Shown: positions 1 to 48,547 of the stretch, piece after piece
Position numbering within the stretch: the first letter of the stretch is position 1
How the letters are laid out: the number at the start of each line of letters is the position of its first letter
Source: Verrucomicrobiales bacterium
GTDB taxonomy: Bacteria; Verrucomicrobiota; Verrucomicrobiia; Methylacidiphilales; JAAUTS01
Direction of reading: 5' to 3'
Assembly (NCBI GenBank): GCA_031265365.1
Contig: JAISCS010000109.1
Span: 1-48,547, forward strand
DNA: 48,547 nucleotides
Notes under the pieces: model-generated
What the model was told of the DNA's origin: nothing
Seen by the model: only the letters and a program-made list of their open reading frames with translations
Database searches by the model: none
Program-made: the position numbers and the translations under genes

Positions 1-121
1 CGCTGAACTACCCCGTCCGCTCTGCGGCCACCCCTTCACGGAAGGGGAATTAGCTCACGCAGGGGCATGGGCGGTGGAGGGAGGCCGGCGTCAGCGCTGC
101 CACTGCTAACAGCGAGGAACC
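1..121. repeat. Family-A palindromic repeat: right core arm plus outer module M1 (left part cut off by the window edge)
   Basis: 1-51 cgctgaactaccccgtccgct..ccaccccttcacggaaggggaatt is the same arm seen in the copies at 14677-14917, 21570-21692, 30596-30821, 32672-32916, 34583-34754 and 47724-47846. The following ..ggccggcgtcagcgctgccactgctaacagcgaggaacc is the reverse complement of the left end of the copy at 30596. Confidence 0.85.
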
Positions 122-343
122 GCATTTCATTGCGACATTGGCAGGGTACTCCGTCATCCTGAGCGCAGCCCTGCAAGGGCGCGTCACCCTGAGCGAAGTC
201 GAAGGGCGAAGGAACGGTTAAGTACTGACTAACCGGCTGGCAGCTCTATTCCGCTGACTTTGACCCAACTGCTCCTTCGACTACGCACCTGCGGCGCTTC
301 GCTCAGGATGACGAACTAGTCTGCCAATGTTATGAGGAACTGC
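121..343. repeat. Family-B inverted-repeat element (gtcatcctgagcgcagc type), copy 1
   Basis: Left arm ..gacattggcagggtactccgtcatcctgagcgcagc.. and right arm ..gcgcttcgctcaggatgacgaactagtctgccaatgttatgaggaactgc are inverted. The same architecture and motifs recur at 46634-46845. Confidence 0.75.
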
Positions 344-362
344 GGACGGTCATGATTTGCGA

Positions 363-1334
363 TTAGGCCAACTTGAAACCGCACACTCGCGCCACGGCGC
401 GCCAGCCGCCGGTGAGCAACCAGCCGATGATGAACATGCCGCCCAAGGCGATGACAAATATCATGTAACCGGCAAACAGGTGATACATGCTGGGATGTTC
501 CTCCGTGCCGATGGCGAACTCGGAGCCGAACATTTGCGCGCCGAACGCGAGGAGCACGACGCGGCACACGTTGCCGGTCATCGCCAGCGGGATTGAGCAG
601 AAGAACAGCACCCAGCGTTGCCAAGGTTTGTCGAGCAGCAAATAACCGCCCAGCGCGGCCACCATCATCAGTGCGAACAGCGAACGCAAACCACTGCACG
701 CGGCGGCGACTTCCAGCGAGAACAATTGCCCCTGCGCGATACGCAGACCGTAGGCGAACTTGGGCGCGGAGATGATTTTGACGCCTTCTTGCAGACAGTC
801 CATGCCGGCGAAATTCAGTAGGTGCGCGGAAATTTTGGCGATAATCAGGCTGAGCTGGTTGGTGTTGATGAACGGCATCGGCCACGCGAACACGAGGAAT
901 GCCCACGGGAAGAAAATGGCGCGCATGAATTGCCGGCCAAAAAACCACAGGAGCAGCGCTCCCAGCGTGATTTGCAGCGAGAGGAAGCCGAGGATGGTGA
1001 AGTCAATTTTATAACCCAGCCAGTACACCACGCCGGCGAAAACCAACGCGGCCAGACCGTCAGCGGAGCCGGATCGCACCGGCGTGGTGGCCAGTTTTTG
1101 GCGGTCCAACCAGACGAAGAACAGCGTAACCAGCGGCACAAACGCACAGTGCCGCCACTCCCCCATTTCCGCGCCGAACCACATCAACCGCAGGTTCCTG
1201 AACACGGTGACCGGCTCCAGCCCGTAGCCCATGTTGTACGGGAACATGTTGTACAAGCCGGTGACGACCAGCGCACTGACGATGACCGCGATGATGACCG
1301 TGTTTCGATTCAGGGTTGGCGGATTGGTTTCCAT
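363..1334 (-). CDS. Exosortase (EpsH/Xrt family) polytopic membrane transpeptidase
   Basis: Multi-TM protein with the exosortase-type Cys region EVAAACSGLRSLFALMMVA and a downstream NVCRVVLL segment. Start set at ATG 1334 (METNPPTLNRN..), 1 nt after the stop of the upstream gene. The longer track ORF (to 1481) would overlap that gene. Confidence 0.85.
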   Translation of the reverse strand: METNPPTLNRNTVIIAVIVSALVVTGLYNMFPYNMGYGLEPVTVFRNLRLMWFGAEMGEWRHCAFVPLVTLFFVWLDRQKLATTPVRSGSADGLAALVFAGVVYWLGYKIDFTILGFLSLQITLGALLLWFFGRQFMRAIFFPWAFLVFAWPMPFINTNQLSLIIAKISAHLLNFAGMDCLQEGVKIISAPKFAYGLRIAQGQLFSLEVAAACSGLRSLFALMMVAALGGYLLLDKPWQRWVLFFCSIPLAMTGNVCRVVLLAFGAQMFGSEFAIGTEEHPSMYHLFAGYMIFVIALGGMFIIGWLLTGGWRAVARVCGFKLA

Positions 1335-1335
1335 G

Positions 1336-2340
1336 TTAGTAACGGTTGACGGTGGAGACACGGCCTTCCTTGCGCGCGGTGGTGAGTTCATCGTGAATCC
1401 AGCGGTAGGTTTTTCCCATGCCGTCGCGGAGTTTGATGTTTGGCTCCCAGTTGAAAATTTGCTTGATGAGGGTGTTGTCACTGTTGCGACCGTTCACGCC
1501 TTTCGGGGCGTTGAGGTTGTAGTTGCGCTTCAGCTTGACCCCGGCGATGTCCTCGACGATGTCAACCAGTTGGTTGATGGAGACGAGTTCGTTGCTGCCG
1601 ATGTTCAGCGGCTCGGCGAAGTCGCTGTTCATGAGCATTTGCGTGCCCTTGACGCAATCGTCAATGTACATGAAGCTGCGCGTCTGCTCGCCGCTGCCCC
1701 AGATTTCGATTTCGTGCCGGCCGGTTTGGAGGCATTCGATGACCTTGCGGCAAATGGCGGCGGGGGCTTTTTCGCGACCGCCGTCGTAGGTGCCGTGCGG
1801 GCCATAAACATTGTGATAACGGGAGACGCGGGTGATGATGCCGAAGTCCTCGCGGAAGTGCCGGCACATGCGCTCGCTGAAAAGTTTTTCCCAACCATAA
1901 CCGTCCTCCGGCAGCGCGGGGTAGGCGTCCTCTTCTTTCAACGCGGTCACATGAATGTCCCGCTGCTTGTCACCGTTATACACGCATGCTGACGATGAAT
2001 AGTAGAAACGCGGCACACCGTTCAACTTCGCGGCCATGAGCAAGTGCGTGTTGATGAGCACACTCAACATGCACAGCGCCTTGTTGTTCTCGATGAAGCC
2101 CATGCCGCCCATGTCCGCGGCGAGGTTGTAAATTTCGTCGTAGCCGCCCTTGGTCGCCTCCTCGCAAGCCTCTTTCAAGCTCAGGTCGAGCGTTTTGGAA
2201 TCAGCGTCAGCGTGCAGTTGGTACCAATGACCAAGCGGCTTTTTGTCCACCGCGCCGACTTGGTGCCCTTGTTTCAATAAATCGCCGACCAAGTGACCGC
2301 CGATGAAACCACCGGCCCCGCATACCAAGATTTTTTTCAT
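1336..2340 (-). CDS. NAD-dependent epimerase, GDP-mannose 3,5-epimerase (GME)-like
   Basis: N-terminal Rossmann motif VCGAGGFIGGHL. Long colinear similarity, as I recall it, to plant/bacterial GME: NLAADMGGMGFI, YSSSACVY, GGREKAPAAICRK, TRSFMYIDDCV, GVNGRNSDNTLI. Confidence 0.8.
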   Translation of the reverse strand: MKKILVCGAGGFIGGHLVGDLLKQGHQVGAVDKKPLGHWYQLHADADSKTLDLSLKEACEEATKGGYDEIYNLAADMGGMGFIENNKALCMLSVLINTHLLMAAKLNGVPRFYYSSSACVYNGDKQRDIHVTALKEEDAYPALPEDGYGWEKLFSERMCRHFREDFGIITRVSRYHNVYGPHGTYDGGREKAPAAICRKVIECLQTGRHEIEIWGSGEQTRSFMYIDDCVKGTQMLMNSDFAEPLNIGSNELVSINQLVDIVEDIAGVKLKRNYNLNAPKGVNGRNSDNTLIKQIFNWEPNIKLRDGMGKTYRWIHDELTTARKEGRVSTVNRY

Positions 2341-2354
2341 AATAATTTTATCTG

Positions 2355-3145: not shown

Positions 3146-3218
3146 TGGAGGTTAGGGGAGTCGAACCCCTGACCTTCTCATTGCGAACGAGACGCTCTAC
3201 CAACTGAGCTAAACCCCC
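3146..3218 (-). tRNA. tRNA-Ala (anticodon CGC)
   Basis: Minus strand GGGGGTT-TA-GCTC-AGTTGGT-AGAGC-G-TCTCG-TTCGCAA-TGAGA-AGGTC-AGGGG-TTCGACT-CCCCT-AACCTCC-A. Clean cloverleaf with the G3:U70 alanine identity pair. CCA is not encoded. Confidence 0.95.
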
Positions 3219-9346: not shown

Positions 9347-9409
9347 GGCCGCTGACGATGACAGGTTAAAAATTTTTTACAAAAAAGATATGACAAATTC
9401 GTTAAAAAC

Positions 9410-9425: not shown

Positions 9426-10511
9426 ATGAATAAAACCACCATCAAACACCGCGAGATTTCCGCCGCTTTGAAAAACGCCATCGTCAGCGGCCGCCATCGG
9501 GCCGGCGACCGGCTGCCGAGCGAGGAAGCGTTGTGTCGCCGCTGGCAGGTGTCGCGCCCGACCGTGCGGCGCGCGCTGCGTGATTTGTTGCAGAGTGGCC
9601 TTGTGGACATCCGCGCCGGCTCCGGCTGCTACGTCAGCGCCGGACTGCGCGTCACGCGGCCCGTCATCGCGCTGCTCGCTGACGGCCTCGGCAAGACGGA
9701 AATTCTCGACCCAATTTGCGCCGAGATTTCCCGCGCCGCGCACGATGCCGGTTGCACTGTGCTAAACACCCCGCTGACGGTGGCCGGCGCTGACGGTGAC
9801 CTGGCCAAGACACTCGTTGCGCGCAACGTCAGCGGCGTCATCTTCGCGCCGCTGGAGCATGGTGCCGACCGTGAGCGGCGTAACCGCGACTTGCTGGACG
9901 CTTTCCGCCGGGCCGGCGCCGCCGTGGTGCTCGCTGACCGTGATACGGCGGAGTTTCCCGCGCGCAGCGATTGCGACGTGGTGGCGTTGGATAATTTTCA
10001 CGCCGGTTATTTGCTGGGCCGGCATCTCACCGTCAGCGGTGCGCGGCGTGTTGTGTTCGTGGCCAAACCCAATTATCCGTCGAGCACGGATTTGCGACTG
10101 GCCGGCTTGCAAAACGGTTTGTTGCGCCACGGCGGGCGCAAGCCGGAGTTCAAGGTCGGCGACCCGCGCGACGTCGCGTTTGTGAAAAGTCTTCGTGCCG
10201 CGCGGCAGGGCTTTGACGCCGTGGTGTGTTCCAACGACCTGACCGCCGCGCAATTCCTGCAAGCCGCGACCAACAGCGGCTGGCGGGTACCGGAGGATTT
10301 TTTGCTGGCCGGTTTTGATGATGTCAGCTACGCCTCGCTGCTCTCGACGCCGTTGACGACTATCCGCCAGCCTTGCGCCGACATCGGCAGCGTGTGTGTC
10401 CGCACATTGTTGGAGCGGCTGCGGCATCCGCAACTGCCGCCGCGCACCATTCTATTAACCGGCGAGCTTGTTGTCCGCGCCTCCACCACCCGCGTGGTGT
10501 TGCGCGTGTAA
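9426..10511 (+). CDS. AraR-type regulator: GntR-family winged HTH fused to a LacI/PBP1-like sugar-binding domain
   Basis: N-terminus MNKTTIKHREISAALKNAIVSG..GDRLPSEEALCRRWQVSRPTVRRALRDL (GntR HTH). The C-terminal part ..VSGVIFAP..VVALDN..GHRRVVFV..AVVCSNDLTAAQFLQA..VPEDFLLAGFDD.. is LacI-type. Start at ATG 9426. Confidence 0.85.
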   Translation: MNKTTIKHREISAALKNAIVSGRHRAGDRLPSEEALCRRWQVSRPTVRRALRDLLQSGLVDIRAGSGCYVSAGLRVTRPVIALLADGLGKTEILDPICAEISRAAHDAGCTVLNTPLTVAGADGDLAKTLVARNVSGVIFAPLEHGADRERRNRDLLDAFRRAGAAVVLADRDTAEFPARSDCDVVALDNFHAGYLLGRHLTVSGARRVVFVAKPNYPSSTDLRLAGLQNGLLRHGGRKPEFKVGDPRDVAFVKSLRAARQGFDAVVCSNDLTAAQFLQAATNSGWRVPEDFLLAGFDDVSYASLLSTPLTTIRQPCADIGSVCVRTLLERLRHPQLPPRTILLTGELVVRASTTRVVLRV

Positions 10512-10695: not shown

Positions 10696-13173
10696 ATGGT
10701 TGGCATGGTTCTGGTTTCTCATTGCCGCCCGCTGGCGGAGGCGACGCTGACGTTGACTCGGGCGATGGCGGGGGAGGAGGTGCGGATTGCGGTGGCGGCG
10801 GGAGCGGGGGCCGGTCATGTGGAGTTGGGAACGGATGCGATGGAGATTGCGCAGGCGATTCAGTCGGTCGCTGACGGTGACGGGGTGGTGGTGTTGATGG
10901 ATATGGGGAGCGCGGTGTTGAGCGCGGAGATGGCGTTGGATTTTTTGGATGAACCGACCCGGGGGCAGGTTCGATTGTGCGCGGCGGCGTTTGTGGAGGG
11001 GACGGTGGCGGCGGGGGTGGCGGCGAAGGTCGGCGGGTCGCTGGCGGAGGTGGCGCGGGAGGCGTCGCTGGCGCTGACACAGAAGATGGGGCATCTTACG
11101 GCGGCGCCGGACGCTGACGCTGACAGCGCGCCGGTGTTGCGGAACGCGCGGACGACGCGGGTGACGGTGCCGAATCCGGCGGGGTTGCACGCGCGGCCGG
11201 TGGCGCGGTTGATTCAGGAGGCGGGCAAGTTCCAGAGTGAAATCCAAGCGCGTAATTTGACCAATGGCAAAGGGCCGGTGTCCATTCGCAGCATGACGGG
11301 AATGGTGGCGCTGGAGGCGTTGCGGGGGCATGAGGTGGAGTTGCTGGCGGCGGGGGCGGATGAGGAACAGGCGCTGACGGTTTTGCGGGCGGCAATTGCG
11401 GGCGGGTTGGGCGATGTGTTGCAAGCGCCGCCGCAAGGGGACGCTGACGGTGACCGCGCGGCGCCGGGGCCGGGGGCGGCGGACGCCAAACCCATCGGCG
11501 TGTGCAAGGGCGTGGCGATTGGCCCGGTGTATTATCCGCAGGCGGCGGTGTTTGAAGTGCCGACGTCACCGTCGGCGGACGCCGGGCGTGAATCCGGGTT
11601 ATTGCGGGCGGCGTTGGAAAAGACGCGGTCCGTGTTGCGGGAACAGGCGCGGGAAGTGGGCCGGGTGATGGGCGGCGAGCGCGGGGAGATTTTCAACGCG
11701 CAGGCGATGGTGTTGAACGACCCGGCGTTGCTGGCGCAGGCGGAGCGTTACATCCGGCGGGACCGGCGGCAGGCGGCGCACGCCTGGTGGCTGGCGGTGG
11801 AGGAAGCCATCAAGACCTACCAAAACCTGAGCGACGATAATTTGCGCCAGCGCGCGGAAGATTTGCGGGATGTGGCGCGGCTGGTGCTGGGGCAACTCGG
11901 CGTCAACGTGCCGGACGGGCTGGTCATGCCGAGGCCGGGCATCCTGGTGGTGAACGAATTGACGCCGGGACAGGCGGCGGCGCTGGACAAGGGCCGGGTG
12001 CTGGGGGTGGTGTGCCTGGAGGGCGGCCGGACGTCGCATAGTTCGATTTTGCTGCGGTCGCGAGGTATTCCGGCGATTGTGCAGGCGCGGCATTTCGCGG
12101 CGTCATTGTCAGCGTTGACGCCGCCGGCGGTGCTGGCGATGGACGGGGACACGGGGGAGTTGTGGCTGAACCCGGAAATCAAGGAGTTGAAGAAAATCCA
12201 CGAGCGGCAAATTCGCTGGGCGGAGCAGGTGACGTTGGAGAAGCGCGACAGCGCGCGCCCAGCGGTGACGCTCGACGGGCGGAGTTTCGAGATTTGCGCC
12301 AACGTCGGCAATGTGGAGGACGCGGAGACCGCCGCCGGCAATGGCGCGGACGGCATCGGCCTGCTGCGGACGGAGTTCATGTTTTTGCACCGCGACGAGG
12401 CGCCGGACGAGGAAGAGCAGGTCGCGGCGCTGCGGATGATTTTGCGACCGATGGCGGGCAAGCCGGCGGTTATCCGCACGCTGGACGCCGGCGGTGACAA
12501 GGAACTGCCGTACCTGCACATGCCCAGGGAGGCGAACCCGTACCTCGGCGTGCGCGCCATCCGGCTGTGTTTGCGGAACCGCGCGTTGTTCCAGCAACAG
12601 TTGCGGGCGATTTTGCGGGCGGGCGCGGATTATGACGTGCGGGTGATGTTCCCGATGATTGCGACGTTGCAGGAGTTGCAAGAAGCGAAGGCGGAACTGG
12701 CGCGGGCGCACGAGTCACTCGCAGCGGCAGGGACGGCGCACCTTTGGCCGGTGCCGACGGGGATGATGATGGAGGTGCCGGCGGCGGCGATTATCGCGCA
12801 TTATTTCGTGCCGGAGGTGGATTTTGTCAGCATCGGCACGAACGACCTGACGCAATACACGCTGGCCGCCGACCGCGGGAACCCGGAGTTGCAGGGCTTG
12901 CTGAGCAAGGAGTTGAACCCGGCGGTGCTGGCGCAAATCAACCGCGTGGTGTTGTCGTGCCAAGGGAAAATCCCGGTGTCCGTGTGCGGCGAGGCGGCGG
13001 CGCACCCGGAATCGGCGGCGGTGTTTCTGGGGCTGGGCGTGCGCGAGCTGAGCATGAGCGGGCGCAGCATCCCGGCGATGAAGCATTGGGTGCGGGGGCA
13101 GTCACTCTCCGCGATGGAGCAATCGGCGCGGGAGTTGCTCACGGTGCGGCTGTCGCACATGGCGGGCCGCTGA
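10696..13173 (+). CDS. dhaM: PTS multiphosphoryl transfer protein DhaM (EIIA-Man-like domain + HPr domain + Enzyme I domain)
   Basis: MVGMVLVSH..LGTD..VVVLMDMGSAVLS (DhaM/EIIA-Man). VTVPNPAGLHARPVARL (HPr His region). GGRTSHSSILLRSRGIPAIV, GIGLLRTEFMFL, IGTNDLTQYTLAADRGN (Enzyme I). ATG 10696 is preferred over the TTG at 10669. Confidence 0.9.
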   Translation: MVGMVLVSHCRPLAEATLTLTRAMAGEEVRIAVAAGAGAGHVELGTDAMEIAQAIQSVADGDGVVVLMDMGSAVLSAEMALDFLDEPTRGQVRLCAAAFVEGTVAAGVAAKVGGSLAEVAREASLALTQKMGHLTAAPDADADSAPVLRNARTTRVTVPNPAGLHARPVARLIQEAGKFQSEIQARNLTNGKGPVSIRSMTGMVALEALRGHEVELLAAGADEEQALTVLRAAIAGGLGDVLQAPPQGDADGDRAAPGPGAADAKPIGVCKGVAIGPVYYPQAAVFEVPTSPSADAGRESGLLRAALEKTRSVLREQAREVGRVMGGERGEIFNAQAMVLNDPALLAQAERYIRRDRRQAAHAWWLAVEEAIKTYQNLSDDNLRQRAEDLRDVARLVLGQLGVNVPDGLVMPRPGILVVNELTPGQAAALDKGRVLGVVCLEGGRTSHSSILLRSRGIPAIVQARHFAASLSALTPPAVLAMDGDTGELWLNPEIKELKKIHERQIRWAEQVTLEKRDSARPAVTLDGRSFEICANVGNVEDAETAAGNGADGIGLLRTEFMFLHRDEAPDEEEQVAALRMILRPMAGKPAVIRTLDAGGDKELPYLHMPREANPYLGVRAIRLCLRNRALFQQQLRAILRAGADYDVRVMFPMIATLQELQEAKAELARAHESLAAAGTAHLWPVPTGMMMEVPAAAIIAHYFVPEVDFVSIGTNDLTQYTLAADRGNPELQGLLSKELNPAVLAQINRVVLSCQGKIPVSVCGEAAAHPESAAVFLGLGVRELSMSGRSIPAMKHWVRGQSLSAMEQSARELLTVRLSHMAGR

Positions 13174-13182
13174 CGACCCGCG

Positions 13183-13761
13183 TCAGGGCGTGAGGGTCAG
13201 CCGGGCCGTGGCGTTGATTTCGGGGTAATTGGCCAGGATGACCTTGACCTCGTAGACCCCGGGCCGCGCGGCGGTGGTGAGTTTTTCCAACGGGATGTTT
13301 TCCGTCCATGCCAGCGTCTCGCCTGGGTTGAGGAAGCTGGAGCCGATTTTTTGCTCGAACAACTTGTCCGCCGACCAAAGGTAAATCATGTCCTCCTTGC
13401 CGCTGCTGATGGCGATGTCGTAACGCTGCGAATCGGGGAACGACAGCGTGTAGCCTTTCTTGGCCGAGGTGTTTTTGACGCGAAATGTCACCTTCAGCGT
13501 GGTGGGGGCGTTGGTCTGGTCAACCGTCGGCGCGGTCACGGAGACCGCGGGCGGGGCGATGACCAGCGTGGCCGTGAAATCCTTCAGGTTAACCTCGTTC
13601 GCGCGCTGCACCCGCTCCGGGTCGCCGGAGAAAATCGAAAAACGTTTCCCCGGCGGGTTGATAAATTGGATGGGCACGGTGTTTTTGGTCGGATTGATGT
13701 CTTGGCACAGGCCGCTGCCGGCACTGACCGTGACCACGAGTAACGAGTACAACCATTTCAT
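13183..13761 (-). CDS. Secreted hypothetical protein, possibly a BsuPI-like (Ig-fold protease-inhibitor) domain
   Basis: Signal peptide MKWLYSLLVVTVSAGSG. The C-terminal pattern SFPDSQRYDIAISS..IYLWSADKLFEQ..LNPGETLAWTE resembles the BsuPI family. That assignment is from memory only. Confidence 0.6.
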   Translation of the reverse strand: MKWLYSLLVVTVSAGSGLCQDINPTKNTVPIQFINPPGKRFSIFSGDPERVQRANEVNLKDFTATLVIAPPAVSVTAPTVDQTNAPTTLKVTFRVKNTSAKKGYTLSFPDSQRYDIAISSGKEDMIYLWSADKLFEQKIGSSFLNPGETLAWTENIPLEKLTTAARPGVYEVKVILANYPEINATARLTLTP

Positions 13762-13803
13762 AGGCCGAACAACATAGCCGGTGTGCCGGGATGTTTAAAG
13801 CGA

Positions 13804-13875
13804 AAAGCTGAAAACAGAAAGCTGAAAGCAGAAATAATTTCCACTTTCAGCTTTCCATTTTCAGCTTTCTGCTGT
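13804..13875. repeat. Family-C hairpin repeat (gaaagctgaaag / ctttcagctttc), copy 1
   Basis: aaagctgaaaacagaaagctgaaagcagaaataatttccactttcagctttccattttcagctttctgc. Related copies lie at 20419-20482 and 24879-24930. This one sits just 3' of the ThuA gene. Confidence 0.7.
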
Positions 13876-13886
13876 TCGTCCCGCGC

Positions 13887-14630
13887 TTATTTCCGGCCCA
13901 ACGGCTCCGGCGCCACCTTGGCGTGCGGCGCGTTCAGCGCCCCCGGCCACCGGCCCTGCGGCGCGGCCCACGCGACGGCGTTGGCGATGACCCGCTGGAT
14001 GTTCGCGTCATGATAAATCGGATACGTCTCATGTCCCGGCTGGAAGTAGAAAATCTTCCCGTTCCCGCGATGCCAGCAGCAGCCGCTGCGGAGCACCTCG
14101 CCGCCCTCGAACCACGAGACGAACACCTGCTCCTCCGGCGTCGGGATGCCGAACGGCTCGCCGTACATCTCTTCCTCCGGCAGCGTGAACGAAGCGTCCA
14201 GCCCCGCCGCGATGGGGTGGCCCGGATTGCACACCCACAGCCGCTCCTTCTCATTCGCCTCGCGCCATTGCAAGCCGCAGCCGGTGCCCATCAACCGTCG
14301 GAAAATCTTCGAGTAATGCCCGGAATGCAGCACAATCAGCCCCATTCCCTGCAACACCCGCGCCTGCACCCGGTCCACCACCGCGTCGGCCACCTTGTCA
14401 TGCGCGCCGTGGCCCCACCAGAGCAACACCTCGGTCTGGTCGAGCCGCTCCTGCGTCAACCCATGCTCCGGCTCCGCCAGCGTCGCCGTGGACACCGCGT
14501 AATCGGGGTGGAATTTCTGGATGGCGTCGGCCAGCGTCCGATGAATCCCCTGGGGATAAATGGCGGCGACTTTTTCGTTCGTGGTTTCGTGGACATATTC
14601 ATTCCACACGACAACATTGAGAGTCTTCAT
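13887..14630 (-). CDS. ThuA-domain (trehalose-utilisation-like, class I glutamine amidotransferase fold) protein
   Basis: [58 protein letters not shown] are typical ThuA features. Start at ATG 14630. Confidence 0.85.
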
Positions 14631-14676
14631 GCGCGCGTCATGTTGCGGCAAATGGCGCGAATGTCAAAACAAAAGA

Positions 14677-14917
14677 GGTTCTATCCCGTGGACAGTGGCC
14701 TTACCGTGGCGCGTGGTCGGCGTTAATAATTCCCCTTCCGTGAAGGGGTGGCGCGGAGCGACGGGTTAGTTCAGCGTTTGGAGCGAGGTCCCTGTAAACG
14801 CTGAACTACCCCGTCCGCTCCGCGGCCACCCCTTCACGGAAGGGGAATTTGCTGGCGCAGGAGGCTGGAGCGGTGAGGGGGGCCGGTGTCAACGCTGCCG
14901 CTGCTAACAGCGAGGAA
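14677..14917. repeat. Family-A MITE-like element, full length, M2-core-M1 orientation
   Basis: M2 ggttctatcccgtggacagtgg.. is followed by the core arms aattccccttccgtgaaggggtggcgcggagcgacgggttagttcagcgtt / aacgctgaactaccccgtccgctccgcggccaccccttcacggaaggggaatt, then M1 ..gtcaacgctgccgctgctaacagcgaggaa. Confidence 0.9.
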
Positions 14918-14982
14918 TCACAAAAGAACCAATTCAACGTTCGGGGTTTTTCCCAACACGTCGGGACCTCCCTCTGCAACGA

Positions 14983-15167
14983 TTTTCCCGACCTCCCGAC
15001 ATCGGGAACCCTACTTTGCAATTGTTTTCCCGACCTCCCGACGTCGGGAACCCTACTTTGCAATTGTTTTCCCGACCTCCCGACATCGGGAACCCCACTT
15101 TGCAATTGTTTTCCCGACCTCCCGACGTCGGGAACCCCACTTTGCAATTGTTTTCCCGACCTCCCGA
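14983..15167. repeat. 42-bp tandem repeat, 4 full units plus a partial unit (a degenerate unit precedes from about 14945)
   Basis: Unit ttttcccgacctcccgacRtcgggaaccccYactttgcaattg starts at 14983, 15025, 15067, 15109 and 15151. Each unit carries the palindrome TCCCGAC(G/A)TCGGGA. Confidence 0.95.
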
Positions 15168-15211
15168 AAAATAGTTCCGCCTTCCGCTTGCCACTTTCCG
15201 CTTGCGCCATT

Positions 15212-15385
15212 TCACAACACCACCGCCGCCACCGCCCAGATACTCAGAAACGCCACCAACCCCATGACTATCGTCGCCGTCGAAAGCGGCCCCGATTTCT
15301 CAATCGCCGAGCCGAACACCTTGTTCAACCCGCCAAACCCCGCGCGCCCCAGCAGCGGCAGCGCCAGCACCGCGCCGGCCAGCAA
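15212..15385 (-). CDS. Possible small two-TM membrane protein (57 aa from TTG, or longer if a frameshift is corrected)
   Basis: LLAGAVLALPLLGRAGFGGLNKVFGSAIEKSGPLSTATIVMGLVAFLSIWAVAAVVL has GC3-rich codons. An ATG at 15438, 10 nt after the ptsN stop, opens MNAVTLTGLVTASN.. in another frame that closes early. Confidence 0.3.
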   Translation of the reverse strand: MLAGAVLALPLLGRAGFGGLNKVFGSAIEKSGPLSTATIVMGLVAFLSIWAVAAVVL

Positions 15386-15448
15386 TGCGATGACCGGTTG
15401 CTGGCGGTGACCAGGCCGGTGAGCGTGACGGCGTTCATGTCGGCGCGC

Positions 15449-15916
15449 TTAAAGTTTCCCCTCCGCCTCGGCCAGATAAAACACAAACTCCTCGCCGGTC
15501 TTCGCGCTGAGCAGCTTGTTCCGCAACGCTTCTTCCTTCAACAACCGCGCCAGCGCCCCCACCGCCGCCAAATATTCCGTCACCATCCGCTGCGGCGTGC
15601 CGATGACGAAAATCAAATGCTCCGTCTGGTTCCCCGCCCGCGCGTTGAGCACCCCCGCCACGCTGCAACCCGCCGCCAGCACCATGCCCTTCAGCGCGTC
15701 CGTCCGCGCGTGCGGGAACGCGATGCCGTTGCCCAGGCACGTGCTCTCCAGCTCCTCCCGCGCTCGCAACGCCGCGCTAAACCCGTCGAAATCCGTCAGC
15801 GCCGCGTCACCCCGCAACAGTTCCGCAATCTCCGCCACCGCCCCGTCATGCGCGGCGGATTGCAAACGCAGGTTTACCAGCCACGGTTTCAGTTTCGTTG
15901 AAATTAGCTTCGCCAT
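15449..15916 (-). CDS. ptsN: PTS EIIA, nitrogen-regulatory/fructose-mannitol type
   Basis: 155 aa, ..STCLGNGIAFPHARTDA.. (active-site His context), ..HLIFVIGTP.. and the usual PtsN length. Confidence 0.85.
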   Translation of the reverse strand: MAKLISTKLKPWLVNLRLQSAAHDGAVAEIAELLRGDAALTDFDGFSAALRAREELESTCLGNGIAFPHARTDALKGMVLAAGCSVAGVLNARAGNQTEHLIFVIGTPQRMVTEYLAAVGALARLLKEEALRNKLLSAKTGEEFVFYLAEAEGKL

Positions 15917-20869: not shown

Positions 20870-20872
20870 ACC

Positions 20873-21517: not shown

Positions 21518-21569
21518 GAAGAGCCAAGGTAGCGGAACCCCGGCGTTTGGAAATGGGAAAATGGATATT

Positions 21570-23558: not shown

Positions 23559-23594
23559 ACAAAGGCCGCGCCCCGGCCAATGGGATGAAATATC

Positions 23595-29240: not shown

Positions 29241-30499
29241 ACAAATTCCTTCCTGAGCCGCGCCAGCACGCGCTCGCGGGCGGCGGCGCCGTCGGTTTTG
29301 AACCCAATGCCCGCCGCGCCCGGGTGCCCGCCGCCGTCGAACTCCAGCGCGAGTTCGCTGACGTTCACCCGCCCCTTCGAGCGCAGGCTGACCTTCAGCC
29401 CGCCGTCGTCCTTCAGTTCAAACAACGCCGCCAACTCCGTCCCGCTGATGGCCAGCCCCGTCTCGACAATCCCCTCCGTGTCCTCCACCAGCGCGCCCGA
29501 CTCGGTGAAATCCGCCGGCGTCAACGTGGTGTGCGTCAGCGCGCCGCCGAACTCGAATTGCAAATTCGCCAGCGCCCGCTGTTGCAACTTGAAGCGCGCC
29601 ACGCTGATGTTCTGGTAACACTGCTTCGCCAACTCCGCCGGGTCCGCCCCCTTCGCCACCAACAGCGCCGCTTGGTCAAAGGTGTGCGGGCTGGTGCCGC
29701 GATAACGGAACGAGCCGGTGTCCGTCAGCAACCCCACATACAACGCCGTCGCCACCTCCGCCGTCAGCGGCCACCGCGCCTCGGCAATCAAATCCGTGAC
29801 CACGCCCGCCACCGCCGGCTGCGAGGGGTCAACAAACTGCCGCCGCCCGTACCCCGTGTTGCTCGCGTGATGGTCAATGTTCCAGTCCACGCTGACGCTG
29901 ACGGCGGGCCGGAGCGAGTCGCCGAGGCCGAGCCGCTCCTCCGTCGAAGTGTCCAGCGCGACTAGCAAATCCGCCTCCGGCAACCGCGCCGGCGTCCGCT
30001 CAATCAACTCCGCGCGCGGCAAAAAGCGGTAGAGCGAGTTCAACCCGTCGCGGTTGAAAATCCGCACCCGCTTGCCCAGCGCCAGCAAACTCAACCCCAG
30101 CCCCAGCGTGCTGCCGTAAGCGTCCCCGTCCGGCCGGATGTGGCTCAACAAGATGACCGACTCCGCCTGCGCCAGCGCCGTCACCAGTTCGCCATAATGC
30201 GGCGGCACGAACAACCCGCGCGGCGGCGACGCCTTCTTCACCGTCACCCCCAGCAACTCCTCGACCGTCCGGTACACCGTGGCCGGCGCGACCTCGCTGA
30301 CGGTGTCATACACGACCGTCGCCTCCGGCACCTCAAGCATCTGGAACAACGCCACCTCCCCCTCCGCGCCGCCCAGCTCCGCGTGCAACAACTGGCCGTC
30401 GCGCAAATGCATCGACCCGCGCCGCCCCTCGTGCACAAACCGGATGGTGCCGGAGCAACCGGACGACAAACACTGCTTCAATAACTTTTTCAACTTCAT
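29237..30499 (-). CDS. nrnA: DHH/DHHA1 phosphoesterase (NrnA-like) with an N-terminal DUF4388-like domain
   Basis: [14 protein letters not shown], ..DHHASN.., ..GGGHPGAAG (DHH/DHHA1). The N-terminal ~90 aa [40 protein letters not shown] fits the DUF4388 pattern. Start at ATG 30499. Confidence 0.8.
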
Positions 30500-30595: not shown

Positions 30596-30821
30596 GGTTC
30601 CTCGCTGTTAGCAGTGGCAGCGCTGACGTCGGCCCTCCCCCACCGCCCCAGCCTCCTGCGCCAGCGCATTCCCCTTCCGTGAAGGGGTGGCCGCGCGAGC
30701 GGACGGGGTAGTTCAGCGTTAACAGGGACCTTGCCCCAAACGCTGAACTACCCCGTCGCTCCGCGCCACCCCTTCACGGAAGGGGAATTCACCGCCATTC
30801 CACTGTTCACGGGATAGAACC
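30596..30821. repeat. Family-A MITE-like element, full length, M1-core-M2 orientation
   Basis: M1 ggttcctcgctgttagcagtggcagcgctgacgtcggcc.., core arms around the centre aacagggaccttgccccaa, then M2 ..ccattccactgttcacgggatagaacc. Confidence 0.9.
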
Positions 30822-30925
30822 AAAAAAACTTCGCGGCTTGGCGCGAGAAATTGGCAGTTATTATTGACGCCCGCCCCGCGATATGGTTTCATTTCCGCCG
30901 CAAAATTTAATTGAAAGAAAAACAT

Positions 30926-32413: not shown

Positions 32414-32671
32414 CCCCGCCCCGTGGAGCGCGGGCAAAAACACCCGCGCCTCCCACCGCCGCCGCCATTTTGCAACCGCTGCAAACCCTTCCCGCAAGTG
32501 CCGCCGCCATTTTGTAACCGTTACAGAAGGGGGGGTACGGCGTTATTGAGACCACACAACGACCGCAAAAACCTCAACAACCCATTGATTAATCAATTCT
32601 TACGTTAATTTTTACCCTCCAACCCGCTTTCAACCAGTCTCAACTTCATCCCCCACCTCCTTAAACGAATA

Positions 32672-32916
32672 GGTTCCTTGCTGCTAGCAGTGGCAGCACT
32701 GACGCCGGAATACCCTTCACCGCCCATGCTCCTGCGTGAGCAAATTCCCCTTCCGTGAAGGGGTGGCCGCGGAGCGGACGGGGTAGTTCAGCGTTAACAG
32801 GAACCTCGCCCCAAACGCTGAACTACCCCGTCGCTCCGCGCCACCCCTTCACGGAAGGGGAATTATGCTGCGCTTACCACCCGCCACTGCCATTCCACCG
32901 TTCACGGGATAGAACC
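32672..32916. repeat. Family-A MITE-like element, full length, M1-core-M2 orientation
   Basis: ggttccttgctgctagcagtggcagcactgacgcc.., the core arms, then ..ccattccaccgttcacgggatagaacc. Same order as the copy at 30596. Confidence 0.9.
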
Positions 32917-33034
32917 AACGAATATTACAAAAAAAACTTCGCGTCTTAGCGTCTTCGTGACCGGATATTTTTAATAAAATCAATATTGCCAAACGCCAAA
33001 AATCCGGCAACATCAACCCTCGCCCGTGCGAAAG

Positions 33035-33109
33035 GGCGGAGTAGCCAAGTGGTAAGGCAGGGCTCTGCAAAAGCCCCATTCACCGGTTCGATTCCGGTCT
33101 CCGCCTCCA
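33035..33109 (+). tRNA. tRNA-Cys (anticodon GCA), CCA encoded
   Basis: GGCGGAG-TA-GCC..GGC-A-GGGCT-CTGCAAA-AGCCC-CATTC-ACCGG-TTCGATT-CCGGT-CTCCGCC-T-CCA. All stems pair perfectly. Confidence 0.95.
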
Positions 33110-33121
33110 ATTTTCTTTTTT

Positions 33122-34552
33122 ATGAGCGACCATGATTTTAGTCTCGACTTGGAAAAGCTGTTCCAGCCCGCTTGGGCGCAAGGCTCCATTGAACAGGATT
33201 TGCTGAAAAAATTCGCCGGGCGCGATGACCGCCCCGAACGCCCGCCCCGCGACGGCGAGCGTCACGGCCAGCGGCCGCGCGGCGCCGACCGTGAACGTCA
33301 CGGCGACCGGCGCGGCGGGCGCGGCCCGCAGGGCGACCGCCGGCGCGACGGCGGCAGAGGCCGCGACCGTGACCGCGCCCAGCGTCACGGTCAGCGCCCC
33401 GAACCCCGCGAGGAACCCGCGCCGCTGCCCGATGTCGCCGTCGAGTTGCAACCCGCCGCGCCGAGCGTCGAGCACATCGCCCGCCAAATCATCCAGACCA
33501 GCCGCGCCTACCCGCTCTTCAACATCGCCCAGTTGATGCTCGACCAGCCCGGTGGTTACACGGTGCGCCTCACCGCGAAAAAGAGCCACCAATCGCTCTT
33601 CCTCTGCGCGCTGGACGACACCCCGTGGGCCAGGGAAAACGAGGCTGTGCTGCACGTCCTGCGTAATCATCTGGCGACCTTTTACCAAGTCGAGCGCGTG
33701 CCCGTCGAGCCGCCAAAGGGCGTGTACACCTTCGTCGCGCAACTCGGCGACGTGCTGCTCGGCCCGCCCAATTACCACGACTATCAAACCAAACTCCACG
33801 CCTTGCACGCCGAGCGCAGCCCGCAAACGCCGTTCGAGTTGTTCAAATCCCGCGTGAAAATCACCAAGGACGAGGCGCTGCTCAACCAATGGCGCGAGGA
33901 GCAAAGTTTTAAGACCGAATACGTCTGCCTGAACGTGCCTGAGCCGCTGCGCCTCACCACGTTCGACGAGGTGAACCGCCACTTCCGCGAGACGCACAAG
34001 GAACACATCATCAAGCGCGCGGACACCGTGACCGTCAGCGGCCCTGCCAGCCGCCGCCTGCCGTGCCCCGGCCTGCAACGCCTCATCCGCCGCGATTGGG
34101 AACAACTGCGCCGCCACCCGCTGCCCTTCGCCACCAAACTCAGCCAGCAACTGGCCAAGCACAACCTGCAATTCTTCAAGGCCGACAAAGTCATCACCCA
34201 CGTCAACGTCGCCCGCCCGAAGTACCTCGACCTCGCCGCCGCCCCCGTCTCCGACGGCATCCGCCGCGTTGTCGAATACCTTCGCGCCACCAAGAAAAGC
34301 AACCGCCGGAAACTCCTCGCCGCGTTGGCCGTGCCCGCGCCCGTCCCCGCCGTGGTGGACCCGCTCGCTGCTGTCGGCGAAGTCTCCGCCACCCTGGAAG
34401 CCCCCGCGCCGTCGCCGTCGGCCCCCCCGACTCCCGCCGAGCTTGAGCAAGCGCAACAAGTGATACTCGCCGATTTGCACTGGCTGGTCCACCAAGGCTA
34501 CGTCATCGAATACGCCACCGGCCGCCTCGAATCCGCCGGCAAACAACTTTGA
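33122..34552 (+). CDS. Hypothetical protein with an Arg/Asp/Gly-rich low-complexity N-terminal region
   Basis: 476 aa. Residues ~35-100 are RDDRPERPPRDGERHGQRPRGADRERHGDRRGGRGPQGDRRRDGGRGRDRDR. A globular-looking region follows (..SRAYPLFNIAQLMLDQPGGYTVRL.. to ..HWLVHQGYVIEYATGRLE). Codon usage matches the neighbours. No family recognised. Confidence 0.7.
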   Translation: MSDHDFSLDLEKLFQPAWAQGSIEQDLLKKFAGRDDRPERPPRDGERHGQRPRGADRERHGDRRGGRGPQGDRRRDGGRGRDRDRAQRHGQRPEPREEPAPLPDVAVELQPAAPSVEHIARQIIQTSRAYPLFNIAQLMLDQPGGYTVRLTAKKSHQSLFLCALDDTPWARENEAVLHVLRNHLATFYQVERVPVEPPKGVYTFVAQLGDVLLGPPNYHDYQTKLHALHAERSPQTPFELFKSRVKITKDEALLNQWREEQSFKTEYVCLNVPEPLRLTTFDEVNRHFRETHKEHIIKRADTVTVSGPASRRLPCPGLQRLIRRDWEQLRRHPLPFATKLSQQLAKHNLQFFKADKVITHVNVARPKYLDLAAAPVSDGIRRVVEYLRATKKSNRRKLLAALAVPAPVPAVVDPLAAVGEVSATLEAPAPSPSAPPTPAELEQAQQVILADLHWLVHQGYVIEYATGRLESAGKQL

Positions 34553-34582: not shown

Positions 34583-34754
34583 AATTCCCCTTCCGTGAAG
34601 GGGTGGCGCGGAGCGACGGGGTAGTTCAGCGTTTGGTTTGGATAGTTTCCCTTAAACGCTGAACTACCCCGTCCGCTACGCGGCCACCCCTTCACGGAAG
34701 GGGAATTTGCTGACGCAGGGGGCCAAGGCGATGGAGGGGAGCGGCGTCAGCGCT
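34583..34754. repeat. Family-A element, core plus truncated M1, abutting the dhaL stop codon
   Basis: The core arms (34583-34707) are followed by gctgacgcagggggccaaggcgatggaggggagcggcgtcagcgct, which ends 1 nt before the dhaL stop codon (34755-34757). Confidence 0.85.
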
Positions 34755-36419: not shown

Positions 36420-36496
36420 AATGACTCCTTGCCGGTTTGCGGCAATCCGCTGACGGTGGACGGGCTTTTCCCGCCCACCGTTAGCGTCGGTTTAAT

Positions 36497-38654: not shown

Positions 38655-40211
38655 TTATGGTAGATACCCCTTTGCCAGTTCGACAAATTCCGCCGTCTGT
38701 TTTTGCGCCCAGGCGTCGTCCTTGCCCAGTTCCCCCGCCAGCAGCGCCGCGATTTTCGGCGCGACCTCGATGGCGGCGCGGGCGTCCAGCAACAGCGCGC
38801 GCGTGCGCCGCGCCAGCGCGTCGTCTAGCGTCCGCGTTTGCTCGGCGCGCGCCGACCAGACAATCTCGGCGTAAGTGTACGGCAGGTTCGGATGAATCTT
38901 TTCCGCCAGTTGACCGTCAGCGGCGGCGATTTTTTTAATCTCCGCCCAGTCGGTGCCGTACACGGTTTCGGGAATATCTTTCGTCACGCTGACGTTGAGA
39001 TAACCGTGCAGGGGCAGGTGTTTGGTCGGGCATGGTTTCGCCTTCAGCCCGCCGACCGTCAGCGCGCGGTCCACCGTTTGCTCCGCCATGCGCCGATACG
39101 TCGTCCACTTGCCGCCGGCGACGGTGACCAACCCCGCGTCGCTGACGATGATGCGGTGGTTCCGCGAAAGTTTTTTCGTCTGCTCCCCGTCACCGGCGGC
39201 GACCAGCGGGCGCAGACCGGCGAAAATTGCCAGCACATCCTTGCGCTCCAGTGGCTTGGTCAAATACTTGTTGGCGTGATGAACCAGAAACTCGATTTCC
39301 TCCTCCAACGGCCTCGGTTCAAGCTCGGCCTCGGGGCGCGGAATATCCGTCGTGCCGATGACCAGCCGGTCATGCCACGGAATCCCGAACAACACGCGCC
39401 CGTCCTCGGTCTTCGGAATCATGAACGCCGTCGTGCCCGGCAAATACGACCGGTCCACGACAATATGCACGCCCTGGCTGACGCTGAGCAAATGCGGCGC
39501 GTCCGGCTCGTCCATGTGGCGGATGGTGTCGGTGAAAATCCCTGTGGCGTTCACCACCACGCGGGCGCTGACGGTGAACTGCTCGCCGGTTTCCTCGTCG
39601 CGCGCCACCGCGCCGCTGACGCGCCCGCCGGTCTTCGTCAGCGCCGTGACCGCCGTGTAATTGAGCGGCACGCCGCCGAGGTCGCTGACGGTCAGCGCCA
39701 GCGTCAGCGCCAGCCGCGCGTCGTCGAATTGCCCGTCCATGTACAACACGCCGCCGTTCACCTCCTTGCGGATGGTCGGCAAATATTCGAGCGCCTTCGC
39801 GCGGCTCAAAATCTCGGAGCGGCCGAGGCTGGTGAAGCCGGACAGCGCGTCGTACACTTTCAAGCCGATGCCGTAGAATGGCAGTTCCCACCACTTGAAC
39901 GTCGGCACGACGTACCGCAGCGGATGCACAAGATGCGGCGCGTTCTTAATCATCAGTCCGCGCTCATGCAGCGCCTCGTACACCAGCGGGATGTCGCCCT
40001 GCTGAAGATATCGCACCCCGCCATGCGCGATTTTCGTGCTGCGGCTGGAGGTCGCCTTGGCGAAGTCGTGCCGCTCCAGCAACAGCGTCTTCAGCCCGCG
40101 CGCGGCGGCGTCCACCGCCACGCCCAGTCCCGTCGCGCCGCCGCCCACCACGAGCACGTCCCACTGTTTTTCCGCCCGCAAGGTTTCCAGTAATTTGGTC
40201 CGGTTCATCAT
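38655..40211 (-). CDS. glpD: FAD-dependent glycerol-3-phosphate dehydrogenase
   Basis: DVLVVGGGATGLGVAVDAAARG..TSSRSTKIAHGGVRYL.. and length are typical of GlpD. The start is ATG 40211 or 40208 (AAGGA upstream), or possibly ATG 40238. Confidence 0.9.
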   Translation of the reverse strand: MMNRTKLLETLRAEKQWDVLVVGGGATGLGVAVDAAARGLKTLLLERHDFAKATSSRSTKIAHGGVRYLQQGDIPLVYEALHERGLMIKNAPHLVHPLRYVVPTFKWWELPFYGIGLKVYDALSGFTSLGRSEILSRAKALEYLPTIRKEVNGGVLYMDGQFDDARLALTLALTVSDLGGVPLNYTAVTALTKTGGRVSGAVARDEETGEQFTVSARVVVNATGIFTDTIRHMDEPDAPHLLSVSQGVHIVVDRSYLPGTTAFMIPKTEDGRVLFGIPWHDRLVIGTTDIPRPEAELEPRPLEEEIEFLVHHANKYLTKPLERKDVLAIFAGLRPLVAAGDGEQTKKLSRNHRIIVSDAGLVTVAGGKWTTYRRMAEQTVDRALTVGGLKAKPCPTKHLPLHGYLNVSVTKDIPETVYGTDWAEIKKIAAADGQLAEKIHPNLPYTYAEIVWSARAEQTRTLDDALARRTRALLLDARAAIEVAPKIAALLAGELGKDDAWAQKQTAEFVELAKGYLP

Positions 40212-40240
40212 ATTCCTTTGTTTCAAGTCGCTGACCATGA

Positions 40241-46907: not shown

Positions 46908-46962
46908 GATTCCCCTGCCGTGAAGGGGTGGCGGCGCGAGCCGACGGGGTAGTTCAGCGTTA
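46908..46962. repeat. Family-A solo left arm (half element)
   Basis: gattcccctgccgtgaaggggtggcggcgcgagccgacggggtagttcagcgtta. No matching right arm follows. Confidence 0.75.
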
Positions 46963-47544: not shown

Positions 47545-47550
47545 CCTTGG

Positions 47551-47579
47551 CGAACCGGTCAAAATTTTCGACCGGTTCG
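47551..47579 (+). terminator. Stem-loop 3' of the PH/GRAM-like gene
   Basis: cgaaccggtc-aaaattttc-gaccggttcg is a perfect 10-bp stem starting 7 nt after the stop. There is no clear T-tract. Confidence 0.45.
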
Positions 47580-47723
47580 GTCAAACGCAACTACAGTGGA
47601 TTATTTTTCAAAGCATGAAACGCTGACAGTGCGGCAAACGACGTGGTATGTACCTTGGTAGTAAAGACGCGGCATATCACGTCTCTACGGGTAGGAAATG
47701 GAACGTGGTCGTCCCTAACCACA

Positions 47724-47846
47724 AATTCCCCTTCCGTGAAGGGGTGGCGGCGCAAGCCGACGGGGTAGTTCAGCGTTAGGGGGGACTCAGCACAGAACGC
47801 TGAACTACCCCGGCGCTCCGCGCCACCCCTTCACGGAAGGGGAATT
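47724..47846. repeat. Family-A element, core only (short M1 vestige agcgaggaac follows)
   Basis: aattccccttccgtgaaggggtggcggcgcaagccgacggggtagttcagcgtt - centre - aacgctgaactaccccggcgctccgcgccaccccttcacggaaggggaatt. Confidence 0.9.
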
Positions 47847-47910
47847 AGTTATTAGCGAGGAACTAGTTTTGTGGTTTGTCAGATACTTGAAATTATGGCA
47901 CCATCGTGTC

Positions 47911-48547
47911 GTGAAAAAATTATCCCAAGCCAAAATCATCGCCGCGCTGACCGTGGCGTTGTTCACCCACCTCACCGTCAGCGGCGCGTCCGCGCAGAGC
48001 GCTTATGACGGGCGACCATACCAATCCGCTGTGCGTAACCAAAATCCATTCGGCATATGCTGGAGTTTCGCGACGACGGCGGTGATGGAGGCGTCGCTCC
48101 TCAAGCAGGGCATCACCAGCGACAAGGCGTGGCATTTTTCCACGTATGACACGGCTTATTGGGCCACGGTTTATTACCGGGAAGAGTCCCCGGATTTGAA
48201 CAACCCGAACGCGGATTCATGGGGCGGATTGAATAACAATGCCTATCGGTTGAGTTGGCGTGCCGGCGGTTTGGTTGCCGAGAGTGTCACGCCGTATCCG
48301 ACGGCCGGCCAGCGGCCACTGCCAGTGCCGGATGCAAACGCCACCCGCAGCGGGTTCACCGCCCATGATGTTTTTTACACCGACCTGAACGGCACGGCTG
48401 GTCTGCAAATCACCAAGGATTACATCCGGCAATATGGCGCGGTTAGTGTGGATTTTTTATGGAACGATGCCAGTTACGACAAGGACACCTATTCGTTCTA
48501 TGATGCCACCGGCATTGATGACGGCGGTCATGCCGTGACTTTGACCG
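47911..48547 (+). CDS. Secreted papain-like (C1 family) cysteine peptidase; the 3' end lies beyond the window
   Basis: My own translation from GTG 47911: (M)KKLSQAKIIAALTVALFTHLTVSGASAQS..VRNQNPFGICWSFATTAVMEASL (Q..G.CW.F catalytic Cys block) .. DDGGHAVTL (His block). The frame is open to the end of the window and is not in the supplied track because it has no stop. Confidence 0.75.
   Translation, partial: MKKLSQAKIIAALTVALFTHLTVSGASAQSAYDGRPYQSAVRNQNPFGICWSFATTAVMEASLLKQGITSDKAWHFSTYDTAYWATVYYREESPDLNNPNADSWGGLNNNAYRLSWRAGGLVAESVTPYPTAGQRPLPVPDANATRSGFTAHDVFYTDLNGTAGLQITKDYIRQYGAVSVDFLWNDASYDKDTYSFYDATGIDDGGHAVTLT

Follow-up and report, generated by a model that had tools for sequence, protein, structure and literature searches.

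The complete metagenome contig JAISCS010000109.1 of a Verrucomicrobiales bacterium (48,547 nt, held in NCBI, JGI and Logan, and hereafter the window) is densely marked with a short asymmetric DNA word whose core is CGCTGAC and whose octamer form is CGCTGACG. This word is almost certainly a real, DNA-level, clade-specific genomic watermark, entered into coding sequences as far as codon choice and protein function allow, as well as into spacers. Our inferences draw on about 110 kb of clade DNA on nine contigs, and genome-wide density was gauged on these contigs; the 41 genes of the window are our own calls, based on GC content at third codon positions (GC3) and Pfam matches.

The octamer is present in 78 exact copies on the two strands of the window, 36 of them reading CGCTGACG and 42 CGTCAGCG on the + strand, which agrees to the digit with the tally in an earlier note on this DNA; the sites that it gave as examples (2651, 2688, 9772, 9788, 11112, 39683, 39702, 9350 and 36448) are all found. 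Densities are 1.6 per kb for the octamer and about 2.5 per kb for the heptamer core CGCTGAC, and the only 8-mer of higher frequency in the window is the low-complexity CGCCGCCG. Dinucleotide-preserving shuffles of the window give 4.1 ± 2.1 octamers with a maximum of 9, and 33 loci of Opitutaceae, which serve as the external background (539 kb, 64% GC, fetched via XylA with 73–83% identity), contain 0.069 per kb, predicting 3.3 per 48.5 kb, so that no more than a handful of copies is expected by chance, as had been claimed. The GC content itself is 61.9%, just below the estimate of 62–65%. The excess over relatives is 23-fold for the octamer and about 90-fold for the 12-mer described below.

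Within called coding sequences, the 66 octamers compare with 4.9 ± 2.2 under codon permutation and with 12.5 ± 3.2 (maximum 23) under a synonymous-codon shuffle within each gene, which preserves protein sequence and codon usage. These 66 copies make up 85% of all octamers, and a further 12 octamers and 26 heptamers lie outside called genes. When an order-5 Markov model is trained on these 48 kb it expects 62 octamers, an overfitted value, since the hexamers that make up the word are themselves learned from the training sequence; this is no refutation, and we discarded the model as a test and used the external background instead. The flanks of aligned copies are random beyond about 6 nt on either side, and no more than three or four copies have a repeated flank, beside another repeat (family-A, see below). 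A repetitive extragenic palindrome (REP) or miniature inverted-repeat transposable element (MITE) class is ruled out for the word by the 85% coding share and the random flanks. In these contig-level tests no shuffle of the coding sequences reproduced the count, the density exceeded expectation, and the copies were not confined to repeats, three outcomes of which any, according to the earlier note, would have undone its proposal.

The octamer is too short a definition of the motif, and we replace it with a longer asymmetric unit, CGCTGAC-NN-TGA(C), spanning about 12 nt with 10 specified bases (7 + 3). The constrained core is the heptamer, with 123 copies in the window where about 10 are expected; the following base (position 8) is G in 78 of these, C in 25, A in 18 and T in 2. 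The full CGCTGAC-NN-TGA occurs 41 times, compared with 0.2–0.7 under Markov models of orders 1–3 and 0.5 from the relatives' background. There is a weak preference for G two bases upstream of the core, and near-cognate variants at positions 8 and 7 are enriched about two-fold in the window. Copies in each of the three frame classes that are used, and copies outside coding sequences too, show the TGA(C) extension, which is therefore part of the DNA word and not of a peptide.

The copies in called genes are read in three ways: 24 in the sense frame xCG-CTG-ACG (Ala/Pro-Leu-Thr), 14 in the sense frame xxC-GCT-GAC-G (Ala-Asp-Gly), and 28 in the antisense frame xxC-GTC-AGC-G (Val-Ser-Gly/Ala). Called genes contain no copies in the other frames, which are the frame holding TGA and those requiring the rare codons TCA or CGT; the Leu-Thr, Ala-Asp and antisense Val-Ser readings reported earlier are thus present, and the Ser-Ala and Arg-Gln readings are not. 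GCT, suspected from the start to be uncommon, accounts for 4.4% of all Ala codons in the window but for 36% of those preceding Asp, and half of the window's GCT codons stand before Asp: a rare Ala codon is recruited to spell the word. Peptide sites compatible with the octamer are realised as the word in 66 of 120 cases (55%). The imprint extends to the proteins, in that [SPTA]LT is found 42 times versus 20 ± 4 in amino-acid shuffles (2.1-fold) and xVS[VADEG] 42 times versus 13 ± 4 (3.1-fold). When the phosphotransferase system (PTS) fusion protein and GlpD are aligned with word-less homologues, residue conservation is 0.55 at word-encoded positions versus 0.66 (p=0.002), and the match to the outgroup consensus is 0.44 versus 0.63. 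Frame tolerance, tripeptide doubling and poorly conserved sites were described for uptake sequences of both known types by Findlay and Redfield (PMC2817400). The frame use, the TGA(C) extension in all frames and in non-coding copies, and the recruitment of GCT together bear out a cause at the level of DNA and not of protein. The idea that the word supplies hidden ('ambush') stops, CGC-TGA-CGG-TGA containing two in-frame stops, was dropped, since in the 28 copies that lie antisense the sense strand gains no stop from the word.

The word is clade-private and is spelled in two dialects. It is absent as an enriched word from the 33 Opitutaceae loci, and also from L208 and L209 (PTS 58–59% identical, 36–40% GC) and L213 (GlpD 67% identical). 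The nearest relatives with CGCTGAC or CGCTAAC have 71–86% protein identity. Two of them use the G form: L081 (PTS 78% identical, from the Verrucomicrobiales metagenome-assembled genome GCA_031279715.1) has 27 CGCTGAC in 6.7 kb versus 1.5 expected, and L083 (PTS 71% identical, 51% GC) has 22 in 15 kb versus 1.4. Others use the A form: L082 (PTS 74% identical) has 15 CGCTAAC versus 1.3 expected and a single CGCTGAC, L210 (GlpD 86% identical, on the 509-kb contig Ga0466692_158668, protein MDR0533655.1) has 27 CGCTAAC versus 1.8, and L211 and L215 have 5 and 6 copies, respectively. CGCTAAC is the most over-represented heptamer in L210 and L211 and in L082 is second to a tandem-repeat word; the A-form consensus is ga-CGCTAAC-nn-YGA. 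L214 has 4 CGCTCAC in 4.8 kb, too small a sample for us to claim a third dialect. Species-level dialects are known for the DNA uptake sequences (DUS) of Neisseriaceae (PMC3630211). In L210 the variant CGCTAAT is enriched as well (17 copies versus 1.5 expected, e.g. at 2056, 3210 and 10640), and position 7 may be relaxed in this A-dialect genome. L212 (6.8 kb) has no copies of the word; judging by overlapping Dak2 ends, it and L082 (12.5 kb) are probably adjacent contigs of one organism. The contrast between these two, zero versus 15 CGCTAAC, indicates that patchiness is real in relatives too, and the glpK-dhaK operon there may be a recent import. Among the matches listed in a scan of viral contigs with CGCTGACGGTGACG (at least 120 loci), CGCTGAC occurs at a background density of 0.38 per kb and no contig rises above the seeded extended copy.

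Individual sites turn over rapidly. At columns 299, 407 and 787 of the PTS gene alignment, L082 has CGCTAAC/GTTAGCG exactly where L081 and L083 have CGCTGAC/GTCAGCG; most sites in this gene are lineage-specific, and two of the eight in the window are kept in L081. Seven sites are shared between the window and L210, four of them as G/A swaps. Across all syntenic DNA (about 75% nucleotide identity), pairs of genomes with the same dialect share 30 of 94 sites (32%) versus about 21% for arbitrary 7-mers, a small sample, and this level of sharing agrees with drive plus mutation (PMC1939737). Between dialects, 50% of sites in A-dialect genomes are common to G-dialect genomes, and only 18% of window sites in return. 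Density is nonetheless held at 1.2–4 per kb in each lineage. Near-neutral decay of positions with a steady density suggests that sites are constantly formed anew, whether through drive or through selection for density, and does not suggest position-specific function. The watermark as a whole needs a long-acting sequence-specific process that favours alleles with the word, is private to the clade, and can change its specificity by one base.

We tentatively suggest, by analogy, that this process is DNA uptake, with the word serving as an uptake or self-recognition signal, similar to DUS and to the uptake signal sequences (USS) of Pasteurellaceae, in an uncultured Verrucomicrobiota clade related to Opitutaceae. 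Uptake bias is ranked first because it is the best-documented process with exactly these consequences (PMC1939737, PMC2817400, PMC3630211). A surface receptor, typically a component of a type IV pilus or pseudopilus, would bind double-stranded DNA outside the cell at the word; fragments with the word would be preferentially imported and recombined; mutations creating it would spread by 'molecular drive' unless they damaged a protein; and a changed receptor specificity would produce a dialect. Slightly more doubtfully, this could be a third, independently evolved uptake or self-recognition system, the first outside Proteobacteria, whose G and A dialects would be recombination barriers between sister lineages. 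The statistical hallmarks of USS and DUS that are present include density, balanced orientation, frames with preferred codons, tripeptide doubling, placement at poorly conserved residues, and dialects.

Several observations weigh against uptake. The spacing is clumped, with a coefficient of variation of 1.3 and a variance-to-mean ratio of 2.2–2.3 per 2 kb, whereas an even distribution is described for the USS of Haemophilus influenzae. Neither spacers nor terminators are enriched in copies. We found no demonstration of natural competence in Verrucomicrobia in the literature, and no competence genes in the window, where the only candidate is a generic pseudopilin-like gene (19751–20413) that scores below family cut-offs. 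All of the hallmarks considered would equally be produced by any other drive or selection that is sequence-specific and acts over a long time, and the analysis covers about 110 kb of clade DNA.

Clumping on the kilobase scale is easier to reconcile with a structural element than with an uptake tag. An unlikely but serious alternative is that the word is a selected motif like cyanobacterial HIP1: it would be bound by a protein that associates with the nucleoid or organises the chromosome, or would be a target of methylation, and its density would be under selection for reasons unrelated to uptake. Like HIP1, it is hyper-abundant in genes and spacers, lacks strand skew, and is lineage-restricted with variants (PMC5861425), and the lack of competence evidence for uptake counts in favour of this explanation. 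HIP1 sites, however, are conserved between genomes (PMC5861425), whereas sharing of the word is, in a small sample, barely over background at 32% versus 21%; the word is non-palindromic and no protein partner is known. Nor would a structural site obviously be kept out of well-conserved genes yet forced into rare codons elsewhere.

A mutational or repair bias is a less probable source, in which a site-specific methyltransferase together with very-short-patch-type repair, or biased mismatch correction, turns near-cognates into the word; CGCTAAC would then be the deamination product (GTCAGCG to GTTAGCG) in lineages that had lost the repair. The dialects do lie one G-to-A change apart (C-to-T on the other strand), which is the signature of cytosine deamination, the asymmetric sharing of 50% versus 18% fits a derived or decaying A state, and fast positional turnover suits neutral replenishing. 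The change here is 20- to 90-fold, whereas known Vsr-type repair biases shift word frequencies by less than about two-fold, and such a system would have to read 10 specified bases over a 12-nt span and override amino-acid sequence. The A dialect also has flank preferences of its own (GA before, YGA after), and CGCTAAC is the top or second most over-represented heptamer in L210, L211 and L082.

The lack of polarity argues against a Chi-like recombination hotspot, and against other polar signals of the kind that RecBCD/AddAB or FtsK recognise, an explanation that we consider very improbable. The word is an asymmetric 7–8-mer, over-represented in genes and lineage-variable like Chi, and its reverse complement contains AGCGG, the Chi pentamer of Bacillus subtilis. 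Its + and - orientations are nevertheless balanced on the 48.5-kb contig (36:42 for octamers, p=0.57; 56:67 for heptamers, p=0.37) although about three quarters of the genes lie on one strand, and this absence of skew, noticed already in the earlier note, argues against a polar signal of the Chi or KOPS (FtsK-orienting polar sequence) type. Relative to genes there is a mild sense excess, close to the 40:30 first estimated, with 38:28 octamers and 58:39 heptamers (p=0.07). Inverted pairs are common, and the density is roughly ten times that of Chi in Escherichia coli, which is about 0.2 per kb.

Codon usage, a frequent peptide, and copies of a repeat or of a paralogue family are already refuted as sources of an artefact: GCG-CTG-ACG does consist of preferred codons, and the 12.5 copies left by the synonymous shuffle mean that a small part of the count is 'free', but the 66 coding copies far exceed this, they occupy three frames and both strands with 12 octamers and 26 heptamers outside genes, GCT is recruited and flanks are random, and only 0.07 copies per kb are found in relatives that match the window in GC and in codon style. 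The relative at 51% GC is enriched as well.

The 123 heptamers of the window, each listed by the lowest + strand coordinate of its 7-mer with the sign denoting motif orientation, are at 90-, 252+, 1059-, 2206-, 2651+, 2689-, 2880-, 3080+, 3235-, 3384-, 3483-, 3534-, 4164+, 4309-, 5554-, 5831+, 6511-, 7025+, 8362+, 8436-, 9044+, 9350+, 9483-, 9633-, 9677+, 9772+, 9788+, 9828-, 9932+, 10032-, 10546+, 10745+, 10869+, 11072+, 11112+, 11118+, 11372+, 11442+, 12108-, 13168+, 15795-, 16163-, 16424-, 17055+, 17576-, 17893+, 17985-, 18276-, 18439-, 18492-, 20063-, 20207-, 20321-, 20527+, 20629+, 23680-, 24115-, 24769+, 25933-, 25958+, 26000+, 26122-, 26815-, 27109-, 27368-, 27667+, 27843+, 27948+, 28085-, 28235-, 28468-, 28568+, 28859+, 28930-, 29356+, 29535-, 29763-, 29890+, 29896+, 30295+, 30621+, 33390-, 34034-, 34570-, 34746-, 34929+, 34967+, 35080-, 35215-, 35274-, 35842-, 35919-, 36266+, 36448+, 37628-, 38261-, 38916-, 38987+, 39058-, 39140+, 39566+, 39614+, 39637-, 39683+, 39691-, 39703-, 40229+, 40574-, 40730-, 41258-, 42324+, 42962-, 43022-, 43174+, 43578-, 44353-, 44755+, 45546+, 46238-, 47539+, 47621+, 47945+ and 47977-.

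Some copies form notable arrangements. An inverted pair in the glpF/dhaK spacer (36448–36486) is arranged as an intergenic hairpin with 15 of 17 positions complementary, composed of a left arm CGCTGACGGTGGACGGG (36448–36464), a loop ctttt, and a right arm CCCGCCCACCGTTAGCG (36470–36486; reverse complement CGCTAACGGTGGGCGGG). The orthologous spacer in L210 has a perfect pair, GCCGCTAACGGC/aattcc/GCCGTTAGCGGC, each genome using its own spelling; this conserved hairpin is without a T-run. Most of the seven inverted pairs in the window are intragenic, as had been noticed for the convergent pair CGCTGACGGTC ... GACCGTCAGCG at 2651–2695 in a WecG-family glycosyltransferase gene. Inside a GntR-type regulator gene, a 63-nt stretch (9772–9834) contains three copies, two direct (9772+, 9788+) and one inverted (9828-). 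An overlapping tandem CGCTGACGCTGAC with a 6-nt register is found on the + strand at 11112–11124 in the PTS EI fusion gene, with a second example at 29890–29902, and a cluster in glpD (38916–40235) has 11 cores, 9 of them octamers, including CGCTGACGGTCAGCG at 39683–39697. Non-coding copies, correctly located by the earlier note at 9350 and 36448, include a full 12-mer CGCTGACGATGA on the + strand at 9350–9361, separated by 4 nt from the PfkB-HAD start codon. The octamer at 89–96 (-) lies in a conserved flank by a family-A element (tgttagcagtggcagCGCTGACG), with sister copies at 30621–30628 (+) and 34745–34752 (-).

The densest genes, in cores per kb, are dhaL (7.9), the GntR-type regulator gene (7.2, with 8 cores per 1.1 kb and exceeded only by dhaL), glpD (6.9) and ribF (6.7). 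At the other extreme there are three motif deserts: 3.05 kb at 20636–23679 with a GDSL lipase gene and xylA, and a family-A palindrome inside it (21580–21682); 2.8 kb at 30628–33389 with the CoA-transferase gene, and family-A palindromes on either side (30677–30779 and 32753–32854); and 2.6 kb at 13175–15794 with the BsuPI and ThuA genes, and a family-A palindrome at 14738–14839. The earlier note suggested that copy-poor stretches could be more recently acquired DNA. All 11 desert peptide sites compatible with the word are unrealised, a test that is partly circular because deserts are defined by their lack of copies, and XylA is also a very conserved protein. An exact look-up of the XylA protein of the window found no entry. 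Of the copy-poor stretches proposed earlier, xylA, the CoA-transferase gene and 45.6–47.9 kb stand; the low-GC island is poor in octamers, yet it has 8 heptamers between 3235 and 5831. This low-GC stretch (3.2–5.9 kb, 40% GC at 4–5 kb) is without recognisable genes and is island-like, at a tRNA gene. The tRNA gene (3146–3218, -) overlaps the 5' extension of the WecG open reading frame (ORF), so that the WecG gene starts later than the longest ORF indicates. A second tRNA gene (33035–33106, +) lies between a family-A element and a 476-aa ORF without a family match.

The family-A element is an intergenic palindrome of about 120 nt with arms aaCGCTGAACTACCCCGTC..GCCACCCCTTCACGGAAGGGGAATT around a variable loop of 25–35 nt. 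It is found at 1–50 (half), 14738–14839, 21580–21682, 30677–30779, 32753–32854, 34593–34697, 46918–46959 (half) and 47734–47836, so that the contig begins within a copy, and copies adjoin the motif deserts (xylA, CoA-transferase, ThuA). Folding gives a single long hairpin (-66 kcal/mol, z = -13), and the element has no Rfam match and fits the REP/MITE class. A metagenome scan with its 23-nt core gave four matches (L084–L087, JGI contigs), all at 45% GC and without the word; presence on such contigs indicates that the element crosses taxa like a MITE.

The pseudopilin-like gene (19751–20413, +) encodes an N-terminal methylation motif, has best matches to Verru_Chthon cassette protein D and GspH, and contains three motif cores; the gene order VanZ, pseudopilin-like, NUDIX, Fur, ExbB/D is kept in L081, L082 and L210. 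A MetH-like gene (24910–26361, +) has a homocysteine S-methyltransferase domain and a partial pterin-binding domain and ends before a convergent gene, and may be a truncated or split methionine synthase. At the contig end of L082 (12400–12478) there is a perfect 10-nt tandem repeat, AGACGCGACT, in 7.9 copies, which may be an assembly break.

Full-text literature searches returned nothing relevant on the word or on uptake sequences in Verrucomicrobia, in keeping with the earlier impression that no such signal had been described. In the literature that we found, uptake-sequence watermarks are treated as a trait of two proteobacterial families (e.g. bioRxiv 10.1101/2025.10.24.684340); were one, complete with dialects, to be established in another phylum, this would show that they arise repeatedly. 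Natural transformation, or some other process that acts genome-wide with sequence specificity, would then be predicted in Verrucomicrobia, and the word would be a marker by which to bin these metagenomes and to detect recent gene transfer in them. Lineages of the G and of the A dialect, taken as pairs, are a natural experiment in which the protein that recognises the word could be sought.

The earlier comparison with USS, DUS and HIP1 holds for the statistics of USS and DUS, including dialects, tripeptides and weakly conserved residues, and fails for even spacing and for the HIP1 palindrome. The DUS of Neisseriaceae (12-mer AT-GCCGTCTGAA; receptor the minor pilin ComP) is likewise an asymmetric word of 10–12 nt, at about one or more per kb in both orientations, and is found in genes and spacers, with inverted pairs as hairpins and single-base species dialects (PMC3630211). 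The word differs in its unrelated sequence, phylum, bipartite structure (7 + NN + 3) and lack of concentration at terminators; the CTG core that gcCG-CTGAc has in common with GCCGTCTGAA is a curiosity only. The USS of Pasteurellaceae (core AAGTGCGGT or ACAAGCGGT) has a comparable density and two lineage-specific types, and shares tolerant frames, tripeptide doubling, a place at residues of low conservation and a lack of copies in some genes (PMC2817400), and its near-cognate forms are gradually enriched (PMC1939737), as the position 8 and 7 variants are here about two-fold. Unlike USS, the word is GC-rich, without AT-rich flanking segments, and clumped.

HIP1 (GCGATCGC), the only other comparably abundant word in the literature that we found, shows 15- to 300-fold hyper-abundance in genes and spacers with lineage variants, and its function is still unknown (PMC5861425); it is palindromic with conserved sites, whereas the word is asymmetric with site turnover. 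The Chi and KOPS/AIMS (architecture-imparting sequence) octamers are also asymmetric and over-represented in core genes, but the word shows no strand skew on this contig, is about ten-fold denser, and commonly forms inverted pairs. With a sequence outside the GCCGTCTGAA and AAGTGCGGT families and a Verrucomicrobiota host, it does not belong to the canonical DUS or USS; it is not DUS, USS or HIP1 by sequence or host, and it behaves like DUS and USS.

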